A stretch of DNA of 63,681 nt, filler included, from an uncultured Methanosarcinales archaeon (lineage in GTDB: Archaea; Nanobdellota; Nanobdellia; Woesearchaeales; GW2011-AR9), in assembly GCA_964434885.1 (NCBI GenBank). It is 5 parts of 5 records of this genome, joined end to end, with 100 filler letters (N's around TTAATTAATTAA, not from the genome) between each part and the next. Parts side by side here need not be neighbours in the genome. Positions count along the whole stretch, not along the records: positions 51,676 to 63,681 come from CAYSWQ010000030.1; 4 more parts are not named here. The stretch is one strand, 5' to 3'. The position numbers and the translations under genes are program-made. A model generated the notes under the pieces. That model did not search any database. It saw only the letters and a program-made list of their open reading frames with translations, and was not told the DNA's origin. Numbering within the stretch: the stretch's first letter is position 1; the number at the start of each line of letters is the position of its first letter. Positions 8,735 through 53,250 of the stretch are shown here, one piece after another.

Positions 8735-8870
8735 TGGCCCTGAGGAGATTTGAACCCCCGACCTCTGGCTGACTCAGCTACTTTTGATTTTTGACATTGT
8801 TTCAAAAGCAGTCATATAAGACTTACGCTCCTTTCGGATCAGCGCTCCAACCAGACTGAGCTACAGGGCC
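8735..8870 (-). tRNA. tRNA-Ile(UAU) with two introns (29/30: 8823-8839; 37/38: 8771-8814)
   Basis: Removing both introns gives GGCCCTG..GAGCG-CTGGT-CT TAT AA-GCCAG-AGGTC-GGGGGTTCAAATCTCCT-CAGGGCCA. Both introns form bulge-helix-bulge motifs. Confidence 0.88.
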
Positions 8871-13637: not shown

Positions 13638-13737
13638 NNNNNNNNNNNNNNNNNNNNNNNNNNNNNNNNNNNNNNNNNNNNTTAATTAATTAANNNNNNN
13701 NNNNNNNNNNNNNNNNNNNNNNNNNNNNNNNNNNNNN
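13638..13737. other. Assembly gap with artificial stop-codon linker
   Basis: 100-nt spacer of Ns containing TTAATTAATTAA. Confidence 0.97.
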
Positions 13738-26425: not shown

Positions 26426-26525
26426 NNNNNNNNNNNNNNNNNNNNNNNNNNNNNNNNNNNNNNNNNNNNTTAATTAATTAANNNNNNNNNNNNNNNNNNN
26501 NNNNNNNNNNNNNNNNNNNNNNNNN
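26426..26525. other. Assembly gap with artificial linker
   Basis: N spacer containing TTAATTAATTAA. Confidence 0.97.
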
Positions 26526-35559: not shown

Positions 35560-38477
35560 CGAATCAAATAACCTTTATCTTTTCTCAAAAAAGAAACTGC
35601 CAACTCTAATTTAAATTTATTCTCAGCATAAACAGTGTAAAGAATATCTCCTTTTTTCACTTTATCTCCTACTTTGCGATTGATATACATTCCTGCCCCT
35701 TTATCCCCTGGTGCTCCAGCAATTCTGGCAATCTTAGCAATAATTTTGTTGTCAATTCCTTTAATTTTACCTGCCTTATTACTTTTAATTATTCGTTTAA
35801 ACTCCCCTACCTTCACTCTTCTCACTCTTCCTTGGGATTTGATAATCTGGTTCATTTTAACTAATGCTTTACCAGATTCTAATATCTCTGAAGCTTTGGC
35901 AATACCTTGACGTAAAGAGTATTTACCAGTCATTTTTAACAAAGTTCCAGCCATATACAAAGCTTTCTTTTTCAAATCCTCTGGCGCTAAAACATCATCT
36001 TTAAGCACCGCCATTACATCTAAAGATTCTAATAAAGGACCAATTCCAAAACCGATTGGTTGGGTTCCATCAGTAATAATCACTTTTACTTTCATATCTA
36101 ATTTTTCACCAATCTTCTCAAACATTTTCTTCAAACGCTTTGCTTGTTGTCGATTCTTGGCTTTTACTTGCGGACCCATGGGGATGTCAATCAAAACATA
36201 ATTCGCAGAAACAGAATATTTTTTAGCCATTACTGAAGCTAACAATTGTCCTTCCGCATCAATTGACAAAGGATGTTCCACTTCAATAATCTTATCGTCA
36301 GCTGGAGCTAGATTCATTGATCCACCATGAACAACACAAGCCCCAGTTTTTCTAATCACTTCTTTAATTTTATTCTGAGATAATTCTACTTTCGCTAAAC
36401 ATTCCATTGTATCTGCAGTTCCGGCCGGAGAAGTGATTGCCCGAGAACTGGTTTTGGGAACAGTAAAACCAGCAGCTGCTAAAATTGGGATAACTAACAT
36501 GGTTGTTCTATTTCCAGGAACTCCCCCGATACAATTATGGACAGCCATCGGAGCGGTTCCAGCCATGAATTTATTATATCCTTCCACATAAAAATCATAA
36601 ACATGCTTAGTATCTGAGTCAATTGTTCTATTCTCTTTCACGGGTAAAACAGATAGATTTCCATTGACAAATTTTTGAATATCTGGGCTGGGAAAAGCAT
36701 AATAAAAATCTTTAAGCTTGTTTTTTGTAATGAATTTTTGTCTTTTCAAAGTTCTTCTAAATTCCCAACCGACATTTTTATCTTCTACTGGCCCTAATTC
36801 ATTAATTGGAAGTAAATTAACAAAAGATACATTTGCCTTTTCTCTTTTGCCATAGATCTCTCTGGCTTGAGTATAAATATAAAAACTTTCTCCAACAGCA
36901 TATTCACCAGTCGGAAACATTCTTTTCCCTTTGCCTTTGTAAGACAAAGAAACAGAAATTCCCAATAATGAGAGTAAATATTGTAAATCCAAATACAATT
37001 GTTTGGATGCAGTAACATAAATGGCTTCATAACCTCTCCGAACATAACCATCACATTTAAACAATGCTTGCAAAAATTCTAATTGCAACTCTCTGTCTAA
37101 ATCAAAAACAAATGAAGGGATATTTTTTTCTAAAGCATTCTTTCCAGCTTTTATCCTTTCATTAAATAATTTTGATGTTAGCTGTGAATAAACAGTAACT
37201 CTAGTAGCAGTTTCATGAGGAATATTGATTGTTGGGCTAAAACCTAGGACTTTTTCTACACACTTTTTTGCATCTTCAATAAGATCTTTTTCATGAGAAC
37301 CAAAGTTAAGATAAATTCCTTGATCATTTGTAAAACCTTCAGCAATATAATAGGCCAACAACTTGACAAATTCTGAATTGATTTTTATATTTTCAAATCT
37401 TTTATGTCTTCCATTTTCAAACCAGTTTTCATCAATTTCAATCTCTTGCAAAGGAGAGGAATACTTCTCGAAGCCAGTGGGAACAACCACAAAATCATTT
37501 TGATTTAAGTCTTTAGCTGGAATATTTGTTATTTTTCCATTTTTCAGAGTAAACACAGTATGATCGGAAGTAATTTTGATTTTTCTGTTTCCTAACAAAG
37601 TTATTTCTTGTAGTTTTTTTGGAGATTTTACTCTGAAAAAACCGGAAACTGGAGCAAATTTTACCTTGCCATTTCCTTCAAAGGTTAAAACTTGAATATT
37701 TTTTGGATTTTTTTCTAAATACTCAGCTCCATCCTTCCAAGTAACATCCTCTGGGCTATTTTCGAAGAGATTGTCAATTACATGTCCAATATTTCTAATC
37801 TTGACTTTGGAACTATTTCGAATTATAACTGGAACNNNNNNNNNNTCAGCAGTTCCAGCAGGACTAGTAATAGCACGAGAGCTAGTTTTTGGCATTGTTA
37901 ATCCAAGCGAAGCGACAATTGGAATAATAATCATAGAAGTCCTATTGTTAGGTACTCCTCCGATACAGTGTTTGTCTAAAGTTAATCCAGGAAATTTTAA
38001 TTTCTGACCAGTATTTACCATGGCTTTAGTCATGTCGATTACTTCATCCACATGCCAACCATGAACAAAACCCGCAGAAACAAAATAGGTTTTTTCAATA
38101 TCTGTTAAACGATCATGAGTGATATCATCAATAATATGGAAGATATCTTGGTAACTTAATTTTTTACCAAATAATTTTTCTCTAATATGGATAACTGATT
38201 CTGGCTTACCGGTAAATTTTAGAGTGATTGTAGCTCCTCTTTTAATTTTTAATTTATCTAGAACTTCTTCAAACAATCCAATTTTTCCAACCGGTACTGC
38301 TTTTTTACTTTCAGAAATATCTAATACGCAAGTAGTTTCGTGTTTTCCATTCCGAACTACAACCCGGTCTCCAGAACTTAAATCTAAACGTTCTGCATCT
38401 TTAATATTTAGAATGGCGATTAGAATACCTCCACTAGTAATATCCATATCCTTTACTTTAAATTTCATATTCGCCAT
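35556..38477 (-). CDS. AMP phosphorylase (thymidine phosphorylase family) with intein; spans a gap and looks chimeric
   Basis: DKHCIGGVP, PKTSSRAITSPAGTAD, LAPADD and QP.G..IGP.LE motifs; the post-insertion extein segment appears twice. Confidence 0.88.
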   Translation of the reverse strand: MANMKFKVKDMDITSGGILIAILNIKDAERLDLSSGDRVVVRNGKHETTCVLDISESKKAVPVGKIGLFEEVLDKLKIKRGATITLKFTGKPESVIHIREKLFGKKLSYQDIFHIIDDITHDRLTDIEKTYFVSAGFVHGWHVDEVIDMTKAMVNTGQKLKFPGLTLDKHCIGGVPNNRTSMIIIPIVASLGLTMPKTSSRAITSPAGTAXXXXVPVIIRNSSKVKIRNIGHVIDNLFENSPEDVTWKDGAEYLEKNPKNIQVLTFEGNGKVKFAPVSGFFRVKSPKKLQEITLLGNRKIKITSDHTVFTLKNGKITNIPAKDLNQNDFVVVPTGFEKYSSPLQEIEIDENWFENGRHKRFENIKINSEFVKLLAYYIAEGFTNDQGIYLNFGSHEKDLIEDAKKCVEKVLGFSPTINIPHETATRVTVYSQLTSKLFNERIKAGKNALEKNIPSFVFDLDRELQLEFLQALFKCDGYVRRGYEAIYVTASKQLYLDLQYLLSLLGISVSLSYKGKGKRMFPTGEYAVGESFYIYTQAREIYGKREKANVSFVNLLPINELGPVEDKNVGWEFRRTLKRQKFITKNKLKDFYYAFPSPDIQKFVNGNLSVLPVKENRTIDSDTKHVYDFYVEGYNKFMAGTAPMAVHNCIGGVPGNRTTMLVIPILAAAGFTVPKTSSRAITSPAGTADTMECLAKVELSQNKIKEVIRKTGACVVHGGSMNLAPADDKIIEVEHPLSIDAEGQLLASVMAKKYSVSANYVLIDIPMGPQVKAKNRQQAKRLKKMFEKIGEKLDMKVKVIITDGTQPIGFGIGPLLESLDVMAVLKDDVLAPEDLKKKALYMAGTLLKMTGKYSLRQGIAKASEILESGKALVKMNQIIKSQGRVRRVKVGEFKRIIKSNKAGKIKGIDNKIIAKIARIAGAPGDKGAGMYINRKVGDKVKKGDILYTVYAENKFKLELAVSFLRKDKGYLIR
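36534..37835 (-). mobile_element. Intein with LAGLIDADG homing endonuclease, inserted at the KH|CIGG site; N-terminal residues lost in the gap
   Basis: Block B IT.DH.VF, LAYYIAEG and FLQALFKCDG blocks, block F VYDFYV, and terminal HN followed by Cys+1. Confidence 0.92.
37836..37845. other. 10-N scaffold gap within the AMP phosphorylase
   Basis: N run without linker. Confidence 0.95.
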
Positions 38478-39028: not shown

Positions 39029-39128
39029 NNNNNNNNNNNNNNNNNNNNNNNNNNNNNNNNNNNNNNNNNNNNTTAATTAATTAANNNNNNNNNNNNNNNN
39101 NNNNNNNNNNNNNNNNNNNNNNNNNNNN
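39029..39128. other. Assembly gap with artificial linker
   Basis: N spacer containing TTAATTAATTAA. Confidence 0.97.
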
Positions 39129-51198: not shown

Positions 51199-51353
51199 TG
51201 CCCCCGCCGAACAGAGACGTTTTCTGCATAATCCAAGGGATTTCAAAAGTCCCCAAGAAAATGCAGAAAATAAAAGTGCCCCGGCCGAACAGAGACGTTT
51301 TCTGCATAATCCAAGGGATTTCAAAGTCCCATCAAAAATGCAGAAAATGAAAC
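51199..51353 (-). repeat. Two tandem 77-78-bp units downstream of tRNA-Glu, each ending in a copy of the tRNA 3' end and containing a stem-loop
   Basis: Units 51199-51276 and 51277-51353 begin TGCCCC(C/G)GCCG like the tRNA end at 51354; internal TTTTCTGCAT...GGGA..TCCC...ATGCAGAAAA. Confidence 0.9.
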
Positions 51354-51468
51354 TGCCCCGGCCGGGATTTGAACCCGAGTCATTGCCTTTCTCTGAAAGG
51401 TTCCGAAAATCTTGTATTTTCGATATCTCGAAAGGGCAAGATGATAGTCCGGACTACACCACCGGGGC
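51354..51468 (-). tRNA. tRNA-Glu(UUC) with canonical intron (51389-51428)
   Basis: Acceptor GCCCCGG/CCGGGGC, TTGCC-CT TTC G^A-GGCAA, T-loop GGTTCAAATCC. Confidence 0.92.
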
Positions 51469-51575
51469 ATTAAAGAGTCAATTTCTGAACTAATTTAAAA
51501 ATCTTTCCTATTCTTAACAAATGTAGTATCACGTTTTAAGGGCACAGTATAATACATCTTGGTGATGTATTATGT

Positions 51576-51675
51576 NNNNNNNNNNNNNNNNNNNNNNNNN
51601 NNNNNNNNNNNNNNNNNNNTTAATTAATTAANNNNNNNNNNNNNNNNNNNNNNNNNNNNNNNNNNNNNNNNNNNN
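51576..51675. other. Assembly gap with artificial linker
   Basis: N spacer containing TTAATTAATTAA. Confidence 0.97.
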
Positions 51676-51881
51676 ATGTGACTGGTTTTTTCATAATCTG
51701 TTAAATGAGAATTGATTAAATCAACTACTTTCCACATTTGTTCTCCATATAAGTTAATGATATCTTTGTTTTTTATTGGGCAAATTTGTTTTTCTTCTAA
51801 ATGGATGTTGAGTTCATGATATTCTTGAAAGTTAATATTTATTAAAGCTTGTTGTAAGTTTTTTTGAAAGTGAATAGCCAT
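51676..51881 (-). CDS. 5' half of the split gene continuing at 26526 (+)
   Basis: Ends ...LTDYEKTSH at the gap; overlaps 26526-26548. Confidence 0.75.
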
Positions 51882-51955
51882 ATGCTGTGGGTTATTGGAG
51901 AATATAAAAAGATTACGAGAAAAGTATAAAAATGGGTTGGTTTTTTTATAATTAC

Positions 51956-52093
51956 GGACCTGTGGCCAAGTCTGGATACGGCGATAGCCTCCTAATCCGC
52001 TAATGATGATAACTTTTATTTCCGCAAGGATAATCGAAGTAGGCAGAAGCTGGAGCGAGCTATAGATCGGGAGTTCGAATCTTCCCAGGTCCG
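51956..52093 (+). tRNA. tRNA-Arg(CCU) with 63-nt canonical intron (51995-52057)
   Basis: Acceptor GGACCTG/CAGGTCC, ATAGC-CT CCT A^A-GCTAT, BHB helix CTCC/GGAG. Confidence 0.92.
51998..52050 (+). ncRNA. Candidate box C/D guide sRNA nested in the tRNA-Arg intron
   Basis: C box ATGATGA (52003-09), D-like box CAGA (52044-47), closing GCT/AGC stem, and two 11-12-nt guides. Confidence 0.65.
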
Positions 52094-52158
52094 GTTTTTC
52101 TTAAAATGCTTTCTTTTTCAACAAAAACTTTATTTACTTCTTTCATTTCTGACAAAGT

Positions 52159-53250
52159 ATGTCTAATGTAACTCTTTATTTTAACTTTGCTCCAAAGATA
52201 TTTTTCCGATCATTAAAATCTAGGTTTTTTCCAAAAAAGTATCCGGGAAAGGCAAAAGAAATCTGTCATAAAGTTGTTGATGATTGTTGGAATGGACAAT
52301 ACTTTCAAACTTCTACTATTAATTTTCCTCAATTTTGGACTAGGGATTTTGGTTGGTGTTGTAAATCTTTAATGGAATTGGGATACAAAAAACAAGTACA
52401 TCAAACGTTGAGATATGCAATGGGTCGATTTCAGCAAGCTCGGGCAATTACAACAACTATAACTAGTAAAGGTAAAGCATTTAATGTTCCTTTACCAGCA
52501 GTTGATTCTTTACCTTATTTTATTCATAGTTTGAGGATTTCAGGTTTTCCATATCGGGCTTTTTCCAAGTTTTTAAATTGGCAAATTAGAGAATTCTACG
52601 AAGATTTTATTGATCCCATTACTGGATTAGTAAAACCAAAACATTTTTCCTCAATGAAAGATTTAAGCATTAGAAAGAGTTCTTGTTATGATAATTGTAT
52701 GGTAGCGATGTTGGCTAATGATTTAAAAATGATGAAATTGAAAAGTCCTTTTGATAAGTATAATTATCCTAAGTTAATTAAACAACATTTTTGGAATGGT
52801 AAGTTTTTTTATGATGATTTAACTAGAGCAAATTATGTGGCCGGAGATGCAAATATTTTTCCTTTCGCTTTGGGAATTATTCAGGATTTAGAAATGTTAG
52901 AAAGTGCTTTAAATGAAATTCAGAAAGCAGGTTTGGATTTACCTTTACCATTAAAATATACAAATTCAGAAGCCAAGCCAAAATTTATTTGGTCTGAAAT
53001 CTTTGCTAAAAATTATGAATTTGATAGTGTTTGGACCCATATGGCGATGTTATATATTGGTTTGATGAAAAGAGTTGATTCTAAACTAGCAAAAAAATAC
53101 ATGGGAGATTATGTTAGAGTGATAGAAAAAAACAAAGGTTATTTAGAAGTTTTTTCTGTTAATAAGAATAATGAATTAAAACCATTTAGTTCTCCTTTTT
53201 ATTATTGTGATCGGGGGATGTTATGGGCGGCTAATTATCTAACGTTGTAA
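52159..53250 (+). CDS. Six-hairpin glycosidase-like protein (amylo-alpha-1,6-glucosidase/GH15-like fold)
   Basis: FWTRD..W, FW.G.FF.D, Y....VW and E.F patterns. Confidence 0.65.
   Translation: MSNVTLYFNFAPKIFFRSLKSRFFPKKYPGKAKEICHKVVDDCWNGQYFQTSTINFPQFWTRDFGWCCKSLMELGYKKQVHQTLRYAMGRFQQARAITTTITSKGKAFNVPLPAVDSLPYFIHSLRISGFPYRAFSKFLNWQIREFYEDFIDPITGLVKPKHFSSMKDLSIRKSSCYDNCMVAMLANDLKMMKLKSPFDKYNYPKLIKQHFWNGKFFYDDLTRANYVAGDANIFPFALGIIQDLEMLESALNEIQKAGLDLPLPLKYTNSEAKPKFIWSEIFAKNYEFDSVWTHMAMLYIGLMKRVDSKLAKKYMGDYVRVIEKNKGYLEVFSVNKNNELKPFSSPFYYCDRGMLWAANYLTL

Follow-up and report, generated by a model that had tools for sequence, protein, structure and literature searches.

The intron of a transfer RNA (tRNA) gene for tRNA-Arg(CCU), found in DNA of an uncultured archaeon of the GTDB lineage Woesearchaeales (GenBank assembly GCA_964434885.1), is quite probably a functional box C/D small RNA (sRNA) with a single guide, which would act in trans on 23S ribosomal RNA (rRNA). 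As judged from its sequence and its relatives, the predicted product would be the 2′-O-methylated equivalent of Escherichia coli C2498, in the peptidyl-transferase region of the ribosome. The DNA under study, here called the window, is a stretch of 63,681 nucleotides (nt) from one metagenome-assembled genome (MAG), and a first-pass annotation of it had already read the intron (51995-52057) as a box C/D guide RNA; its coordinates and its string of motifs agree exactly with our parsing of the gene.

A BLAST search with the gene in 114 genomes of the same family (marine Woesearchaeota-like archaea), the set used for all homolog searches, recovered tRNA-Arg(CCU) genes with clearly recognisable C and D boxes in their introns. 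A covariance model made from nine RNAs, this copy among them (R1), matched 63 of the 114 genomes at E ≤ 0.1 and gave this copy 47.6 bits; the 56 matches of at least 25 bits, 50 of them distinct, were tabulated and are the homologs referred to below. Since the copy under study sat in the seed of R1, another model was built from 23 relatives with this copy left out (R2), which gave a single match in the window, at 51998-52051 (27.3 bits, E = 2.5e-5). The C box region, AATGATGA at 52002-52009, reads as the consensus RUGAUGA, and all 56 homologs keep ATGA[T/C/A]GA or GTGA.GA at this place. The D box is CTGA in 40 of them, CGGA in 6, CCGA in 6 and CAGA, the form seen here, in 4, that is, CNGA with a free second position. 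A short terminal stem (GCT/AGC plus TCC/GGA) joins both boxes. C box, D-like box and closing stem had all been pointed out by the first-pass annotation, and how far the boxes are conserved among relatives, which it had named as a check, can be read from these counts. Moreover, all eight modelled base pairs, four in the terminal stem and four in an internal hairpin, have changed on both sides among the 56 homologs; 97.3% of the cells are paired in comparison with 37-57% for slid partners, and none of 500 shuffles equalled the observed values, in an alignment that was fitted to the model and favours the structure found. Altogether, the homologs, the R2 match and the covariation uphold the reading as a box C/D guide RNA, and this comparison makes the intron a member of a small-RNA family conserved among these archaea. 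Beyond the family, a pattern search of 401 genomes of the order (C box, 25-55 nt, CGAWGTAGNCWGA) returned two matches outside this genome, both resembling coding sequence and one of them in the unpublished genome G425, on which nothing here depends, and two in the reversed-pattern control; this order-wide search yielded no evidence that the RNA exists beyond the family, and it met with no TCGATGTAG guide that would compensate for the GCUACAUC variant.

The guide preceding the D box, ATCGAAGTAG, forms 10 nt of perfect pairing with GCUACUUCGAUG in the 23S rRNA of relatives. The target GCTACTTCGATG, matched by Watson-Crick pairs over its 10 nt, lies directly 5′ of the universal GATGTCGGCTC, and since the latter begins at 2502 in the rrlH gene of E. 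coli K-12, the cytidine that faces the fifth nucleotide upstream of the D box (the N+5 position, here G52039) is the equivalent of C2498, in a G-C pair. The earlier claim that the D guide is complementary to CUACUUCGAU of 23S domain V, with C2498 as the nucleotide to be methylated, holds in this way on the 23S of relatives and in rrlH numbering. The published criterion for target prediction in archaea is 9 base pairs (bp), according to the accessible text of Dennis 2015 (PMC4644070), and the D guide pairs over at least 9 nt of the relatives' 23S, its fifth position in a Watson-Crick pair. In a shuffling control of the 12-nt guide against the 23S and 16S of one relative, 1 of 500 shuffles reached a 10-nt match. 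The 10-mer ATCGAAGTAG is identical in 12 of the 56 homologs (class A), spread over many genera, and the remaining RNA, including spacers and loops, differs widely among them; the four class A genomes having a 23S (G046, G009, G005 and G022) all hold the matching target. In the mature host tRNA-Arg(CCU) the longest complementarity is 5 nt for the D guide and 4 nt for the D′ spacer, and there is none around positions 34 and 39 such as that known for tRNA-Trp; 18 other predicted tRNAs have no complementarity above 6 nt to either spacer, and 16S has no match above 7 nt. Since the host tRNA is not matched, the guide cannot act on its own host and would act in trans, as the first-pass annotation had also supposed.

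The genome encodes fibrillarin (PF01269, 253 bits), Nop5 (PF01798, 176 bits) and L7Ae (PF01248, 89 bits), all above curated cut-offs, the set whose presence the first-pass annotation had named as a check, as well as EndA (PF01974, 99 bits) and RtcB (PF01139, 562 bits). With these proteins a mechanism can be proposed, whose steps all come from sequence, comparison and published knowledge of such systems. One precursor would be transcribed from the tRNA promoter, EndA would cleave it at the bulge-helix-bulge (BHB) motif made by CTCC of the anticodon loop and GGAG of the intron, and RtcB would ligate the exons and probably circularise the intron. The freed intron would then refold into an extended stem of TCC-GCT with AGC-(U)-GGA, where AUGAUGA and CAGA would meet as a kink-turn (K-turn) for L7Ae, and on this K-turn Nop5 and fibrillarin would be assembled. 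The 10-nt D guide AUCGAAGUAG would pair with 23S 2495-2504 (E. coli numbering), and fibrillarin would 2′-O-methylate C2498, which faces the fifth position of the guide counted upstream from box D. The D′ half would have decayed in this lineage, leaving an AT-rich spacer, a hairpin in place of a K-loop and a C′ remnant. As regards the splicing motif, its 3′ bulge is canonical (CG|A, 52056-52058) and its 5′ side relaxed, with TA|ATCC as a 6-nt loop that faces a single T. RNAfold gives −15.4 kcal/mol for the splicing fold, which was constrained, and −18.0 kcal/mol for the minimum free energy conformer with TCC paired to GGA, and we infer from these modelled folds that re-pairing of the GGA may switch the RNA from a precursor that can be spliced to a free intron that can form the K-turn.

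Several observations weigh against a functional guide of this kind. The CAGA form of the D box swaps the usual U-U of the K-turn for a possible U-A, the C′ element is without the G of its GA pair and the D′ box is missing. Archaeal C/D ribonucleoproteins (RNPs) are generally said to work best with two symmetric K-turns, and no internal C′/D′ K-turn or K-loop is present here, there being no CUGA-like D′ and a C′ reduced to GGAUAA. Degenerate C′/D′ motifs occur among accepted C/D sRNAs, and for this reason we regard the internal half as a variant feature and not as grounds for exclusion. There is competition between the terminal stem and the splicing helix, in which the non-splicing conformer is by prediction favoured by 2.6 kcal/mol. 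This copy is also the weakest of the clear homologs, with its 47.6 bits against 60-78 for most. On the side of the target, the organism's own 23S was not found in the 66-contig assembly, and its 16S only in part, so that the target sequence had to be taken from genomes of the same family. In these, the segment (held by 39 of the 114) reads GCTACTTC in 30, and it is the other two forms, GCTTCTTC in 8 and GCTACATC in 1, that speak against the pairing. Six copies (G069-G072, G002 and G054) carry the guide TCTAAGTAGG, mismatched at C2501; a compensatory 23S change was considered and rejected, as the 23S of G070 and G071 keep CTACTTCGA, and with the normal target kept, perfect pairing is not strictly maintained in the family. 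Moreover, the guide 10-mer occurs at three other sites of the 1.07-Mb genome, which is about chance expectation, and among the public runs holding the locus no RNA run is listed.

Many of these weaknesses would follow if the intron were a decaying relic, the descendant of a C/D sRNA that now guides nothing and is simply spliced out and degraded. The lowest scores of any clear homolog (with R1 and, at 27.3 bits, with R2), the CAGA D box, the GGATAA C′, a D′ spacer with 11 of its 12 positions A or T in a genome of 31.7% GC, and a terminal stem rebuilt with a 3-nt insertion and overlapping the splicing helix are what such a history would leave behind. We nevertheless consider it unlikely, since the C box is flawless, the D box retains its GA and all 11 nt of the guide are the same as in G022, G055, G058, G046 and G048, in a context of fully diverged flanking spacer and loops. 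Besides, CAGA recurs at a D-box position that varies freely, and the AUAAUCG form around C′ (ATAATCG in DNA) is common to five other of the 12 class A copies (G022, G055, G058, G046 and G005). A role as a mere chaperone, with the RNP pairing to nascent 23S at 2495-2504 and aiding its folding without methylation because a one-sided RNP would be catalytically poor, appears more doubtful still. Such a role has been proposed for C/D sRNAs in the accessible text of PMC4644070 and would agree with the degenerate C′/D′ half and with the C2501 mismatch tolerated in relatives, but every class A copy has a Watson-Crick G-C pair precisely at N+5, fibrillarin is encoded and there is no specific argument for lost catalysis. 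That an ordinary tRNA intron should just happen to contain box-like words hardly deserves any credit: a loose genome-wide search for C/D patterns did give 17 matches, against 8 in the reversed genome, and is in this AT-rich genome too unspecific to list more sRNAs, but chance resemblance is refuted by the R1 homologs in 63 of 114 genomes, by the covariation of all eight pairs and by the independent R2 match at the site, to which the guide shuffles can be added.

A double guide, in which both spacers would pair with the peptidyl-transferase region and methylate about 2430-2439 as well as 2498, had been advanced by the first-pass annotation, and this part of its reading fares badly; we rate it as very unlikely. 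The 23S of relatives reads CUGAAAAGUUACUCC upstream of the D target, and with its stretch CTGAAAAGTTACTCCGGGGATAAC the D′ spacer pairs over 8 AU-rich nt only, namely UAACUUUU against AAAAGUUA (2432-2439 in E. coli), a site 63 nt upstream of that of the D guide. Archaeal double guides with targets less than 100 nt apart are described as common in the accessible text of PMC4644070. In the present case, however, 89 of 500 shuffles do as well, which is chance level, and the pairing is confined to the end of the spacer next to the C box, which puts N+5 at the duplex edge and leaves unpaired positions 1-4, beside the expected D′ box. That box, read earlier as CCGC, is really the 5′ half of the covarying hairpin TCC-GCAA-GGA, whose aligned counterparts in relatives are the hairpins TCCC/GGGA, TCCT/AGGA and TTCC/GGAA. 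A D′ box is lacking in this copy and C′ is not intact; the sequence AAGGATA, taken earlier for the C′ box, overlaps the C′ remnant GGAUAA that aligns with GGGAUGA. The spacer itself lacks the GAGTAA core found in most relatives and is unlike that of even the nearest copies, G055, G119 and G022. In favour of two guides, D′ spacers of some relatives such as TCCTGGAGTAA and CTTCGGAGTAA can form 11-nt pairings, G-U included, with UUACUCCGGGG adjacent to AAAAGUUA, and together with CTCTGGAGTAA they match in the same way the neighbouring TTACTCCGGGG (about 2437-2447), 57 nt from C2498. These pairings are reached by 30, 39 and 48 of 300 shuffles, and that of the commonest type, GCTCCTGAGTAA, by 218 of 300, which is not significant and leaves the D′ matches of relatives as suggestive; the D′ half of this copy is, from its sequence, degenerate. 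A CTGA within the relatives' conserved CTCCTGAGTAA was also considered as a D′ box and discarded, as it lies only 4 nt past the C box and the GGGA that follows covaries with UCCC. In genome G059, the sRNA of a tRNA-Arg intron (L038:1409-1522) has an insertion of about 57 nt in the internal hairpin and keeps its boxes and its C2498 guide. The functional single guide proposed here is mapped in Table 1.

Table 1. Features of the tRNA-Arg(CCU) locus and of its predicted intronic sRNA (window positions).
Feature	Position	Strand	Remarks and basis
TATA/box A-like element TATAAAAA	51925-51932	+	Starts 31 nt upstream of tRNA 5′ end; sequence reading
tRNA-Arg(CCU) gene	51956-52093	+	Anticodon CCT 51991-51993; Rfam RF00005, 44.6 bits; ARAGORN -i; exon parsing
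Exon 1	51956-51994	+	Parsing
CTCC (tRNA 32-35), 5′ strand of central 4-bp BHB helix	51989-51992	+	Pairs with GGAG 52052-52055; drawn from sequence
Intron, predicted box C/D sRNA, 63 nt	51995-52057	+	Canonical position 37/38; parsing, models R1 and R2
Terminal stem, 5′ half TCC GCT	51996-52001	+	Pairs with AGC-(T)-GGA 52048-52054; sequence, RNAfold
GCT, inner part of terminal stem	51999-52001	+	With AGC 52048-50 adjoins the predicted K-turn
C box ATGATGA (consensus RUGAUGA)	52003-52009	+	Sequence
D′ spacer TAACTTTTATTT, 12 nt	52010-52021	+	11/12 A/T; judged degenerate
Internal hairpin TCC-GCAA-GGA	52021-52030	+	At place of D′ box and K-loop
CCGCAAGG	52022-52029	+	Sequence parsing
C′ remnant GGATAA	52028-52033	+	GGGATGA or GGGATAA in relatives; alignments A1, A2, A4
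D guide ATCGAAGTAGG	52033-52043	+	Preceded by ATAA; 52033-52042 pair with 23S C2495-U2504
D box variant CAGA (consensus CUGA)	52044-52047	+	GA kept, second position changed
Terminal stem, 3′ half AGC T GGA	52048-52054	+	Sequence; folds
Exon 2	52058-52093	+	Parsing
T5 run, candidate terminator	52095-52099	+	Directly 3′ of tRNA; sequence reading

The family is not confined to introns, as 27 of the 56 homologs lie within a tRNA-Arg(CCU) intron and 29 elsewhere. Each of the 29 non-intronic copies has a BHB at its borders, with 4 of 4 pairs in the central helix and 3-nt bulges; the helix is of the types CTCA/TGAG, GTCA/TGAT, CCTA/TGGG, TCTA/TGGA or CTCG/CGAG, and in the main type 18 of 24 copies have an outer helix with 4-5 of 5 pairs. 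Moreover, for 23 of the 29 a tRNA-like 3′ end lies upstream at a distance of no more than 60 nt, and three copies are followed by sequence that resembles a tRNA 3′ exon. Four loci, L055 (G086), L070 (G091), L071 (G011) and L056 (G083), display the arrangement, with a complete tRNA, some 20 nt and the BHB-bounded sRNA, and in 3 cases the 3′-exon-like sequence after it. Such a remnant makes the locus look like a tandem duplicate that has lost its 5′ exon to decay, and the comparison suggests that the non-intronic copies arose when an intron-containing gene was duplicated and exons then decayed.

A different D guide, AAGAGAGTTA, occurs in 26 of the 56 homologs (class B; for instance L052-L063 of genus g61, L066 and L071). 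It matches TAACTCTCTT of 23S helix 69 over 10 nt in all seven 23S loci of the same family that were examined, a match that 1 of 300 shuffles reaches, with C1920 at N+5. Orthologous RNAs with this guide indicate that the guide RNA was re-aimed, and intermediate forms of the D guide, AAGAGAGTAGG, are also present among the homologs. It is conceivable, at odds slightly below even for the idea as a whole, re-aiming included, that this is an sRNA family obligatorily made by tRNA splicing, a portable BHB cassette that passes between intron and trailer by duplication and exon decay and whose D guide has been re-aimed between C2498 and C1920, two cytidines in functional centres of 23S, every copy being cut out by EndA and probably circularised by RtcB. 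If so, methylation of the catalytic core of the ribosome would be tied to the transcription and splicing of a rare-codon tRNA.

Work on the tRNA-Trp intron guide, one of the nearest known systems, is reportedly that of Clouet d'Orval in 2001 and Singh in 2004. This box C/D sRNA of Euryarchaeota (Haloferax; Pyrococcus sR50) is cited in the accessible texts of PMC7994747 and PMC7714728, where, as here, a C/D guide forms the body of a 37/38 intron, is released by the endonuclease and depends on the tRNA promoter. The tRNA-Trp intron is described there as guiding the modification of its own tRNA (C34 and U39), whereas the intron studied here has at most 5 nt of host match and a predicted 23S target, sits in tRNA-Arg(CCU) and has one intact guide only. 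Another case is that of Nanoarchaeum equitans, also a DPANN archaeon, for which the elongator tRNA-Met's stable 66-nt intron was put forward as a C/D sRNA, and a dicistronic tRNA-Val/sRNA8 was described (Randau 2012, PMC3491384, accessible text). Both lineages have a C/D-like RNA in a non-Trp tRNA intron and C/D sRNAs directly downstream of tRNAs, a likeness drawn from the description and not from sequence. The accessible text of PMC3491384 names no target for the N. equitans intron, whereas a 23S target is predicted here, and it proposes release of the downstream sRNA by RNase Z, in contrast with our 29 BHB-bounded copies and with a single family in both positions.

Compared with archaeal C/D sRNAs in general, which as double guides target hotspots in the peptidyl-transferase centre and in helices 68-71 (Dennis 2015, PMC4644070; PMC7994747; accessible texts), the intron has the same order of C box, about 12 nt, internal element, some 10-12 nt and D box, and the same guide rules of at least 9 bp and N+5, with predicted targets in domain V (this copy) and in helix 69 (class B relatives). 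It departs from the double guides of these texts in its Watson-Crick hairpin in place of the C′/D′ K-loop and in its CNGA D box. The string '2498' is absent from the main texts of PMC7994747 and PMC4644070, their supplements excluded. For archaeal tRNA introns as hosts of C/D guides, the accessible texts report the host-modifying tRNA-Trp intron and, tentatively, the tRNA-Met intron of N. equitans; in the open texts consulted, PMC3218864 among them, exclusive of paywalled papers and supplements, neither a C/D guide in a tRNA-Arg intron nor a tRNA-intron guide aimed at rRNA came to light. What sets this case apart is an intron-borne guide predicted to aim at the catalytic centre of the ribosome, its conservation across many genera of an uncultivated DPANN lineage, and sister copies outside the tRNA that have kept only the splicing motif. 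If correct, the proposal would offer a clear natural example of BHB-dependent biogenesis of C/D sRNAs and a concrete route for the movement of tRNA introns and small RNAs.

In bacteria, C2498 and C1920 are modified by dedicated protein enzymes, and RlmM is the stand-alone methyltransferase that makes Cm2498 in the 23S of E. coli. The same nucleotide and the same modification are predicted here, RNA-guided in the archaeon and protein-only in the case of RlmM; both systems would be convergent and not homologous. If the proposal is right, RNA-guided and protein-only enzymes would have converged on C2498 and, in relatives, on C1920.

The source MAG has 1.07 Mb in 66 contigs and 92% completeness, and the tRNA-Arg(CCU) locus lies close to the start of contig C30. 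Since the window consists of contigs of one MAG placed end to end, features on either side of an N run (13638-13737, 26426-26525, 37836-37845, 39029-39128 and 51576-51675) are not genomic neighbours; a tRNA at 51354-51468, for example, is not truly adjacent to tRNA-Arg. DNA of the locus is present in marine and seawater metagenomes, and in the assembled DNA contigs (Logan) of four public runs from two studies no difference was seen along 51900-52150, a region that three of the runs span in full and one up to about 52073, with the caveat that one of the four may be the assembly's own source. The closest named relatives of the fibrillarin of this genome are MAGs titled Candidatus Woesearchaeota or Nanoarchaeota archaeon.

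The rRNA genes of the family have particularities of their own. In the 23S of relatives L004, L013 and L009, insertions of about 40 nt or more stand between GAGAGTTCA and ATCGACGG of domain V, just upstream of the C2498 site, which could be either expansion segments or else small introns of the rRNA in its peptidyl-transferase region. In three genomes the match to 16S extends over model positions 4-828, plus 830-857 in two (L001, G000:C47:5964-6911; L106/L108, G005; L107, G055), and in G000 and G055, the ones with placeable ends, it stops within about 40 nt of a contig end, a recurrent break that hints at an insertion or intron halting assembly.

With respect to the tRNA gene itself, the Rfam RF00005 match has a 65-nt insertion within the anticodon loop, and ARAGORN reports a tRNA-Arg(cct) with a 63-nt intron when introns are allowed, the default run missing the gene. 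At E ≤ 10, Rfam finds in 51300-52200 the tRNA and two chance matches, and no known sRNA family. The element at 51925-51932 is likely a promoter for tRNA and intron together, a sequence TTTAAAAA being present at a similar upstream distance from tRNA-Arg genes of relatives, and the T5 run after the gene reads as a likely terminator. Two further intron-containing tRNA genes of the window, at 8735-8870 and 51354-51468, both on the minus strand (Rfam, 42.0 and 41.4 bits), are also missed by default ARAGORN, and no C box was seen by eye in their introns. The tRNA-Arg genes of relatives (L026, L031, L033, L035, L036, L040 and others) have introns in the D-loop or the T-loop, short ones in the anticodon loop, or none, and by this comparison the gain and loss of tRNA-Arg introns is rapid in this archaeal family. 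ARAGORN with introns allowed counts 13 intron-bearing tRNAs in the whole genome, a practical reminder that default tRNA finders overlook such genes.

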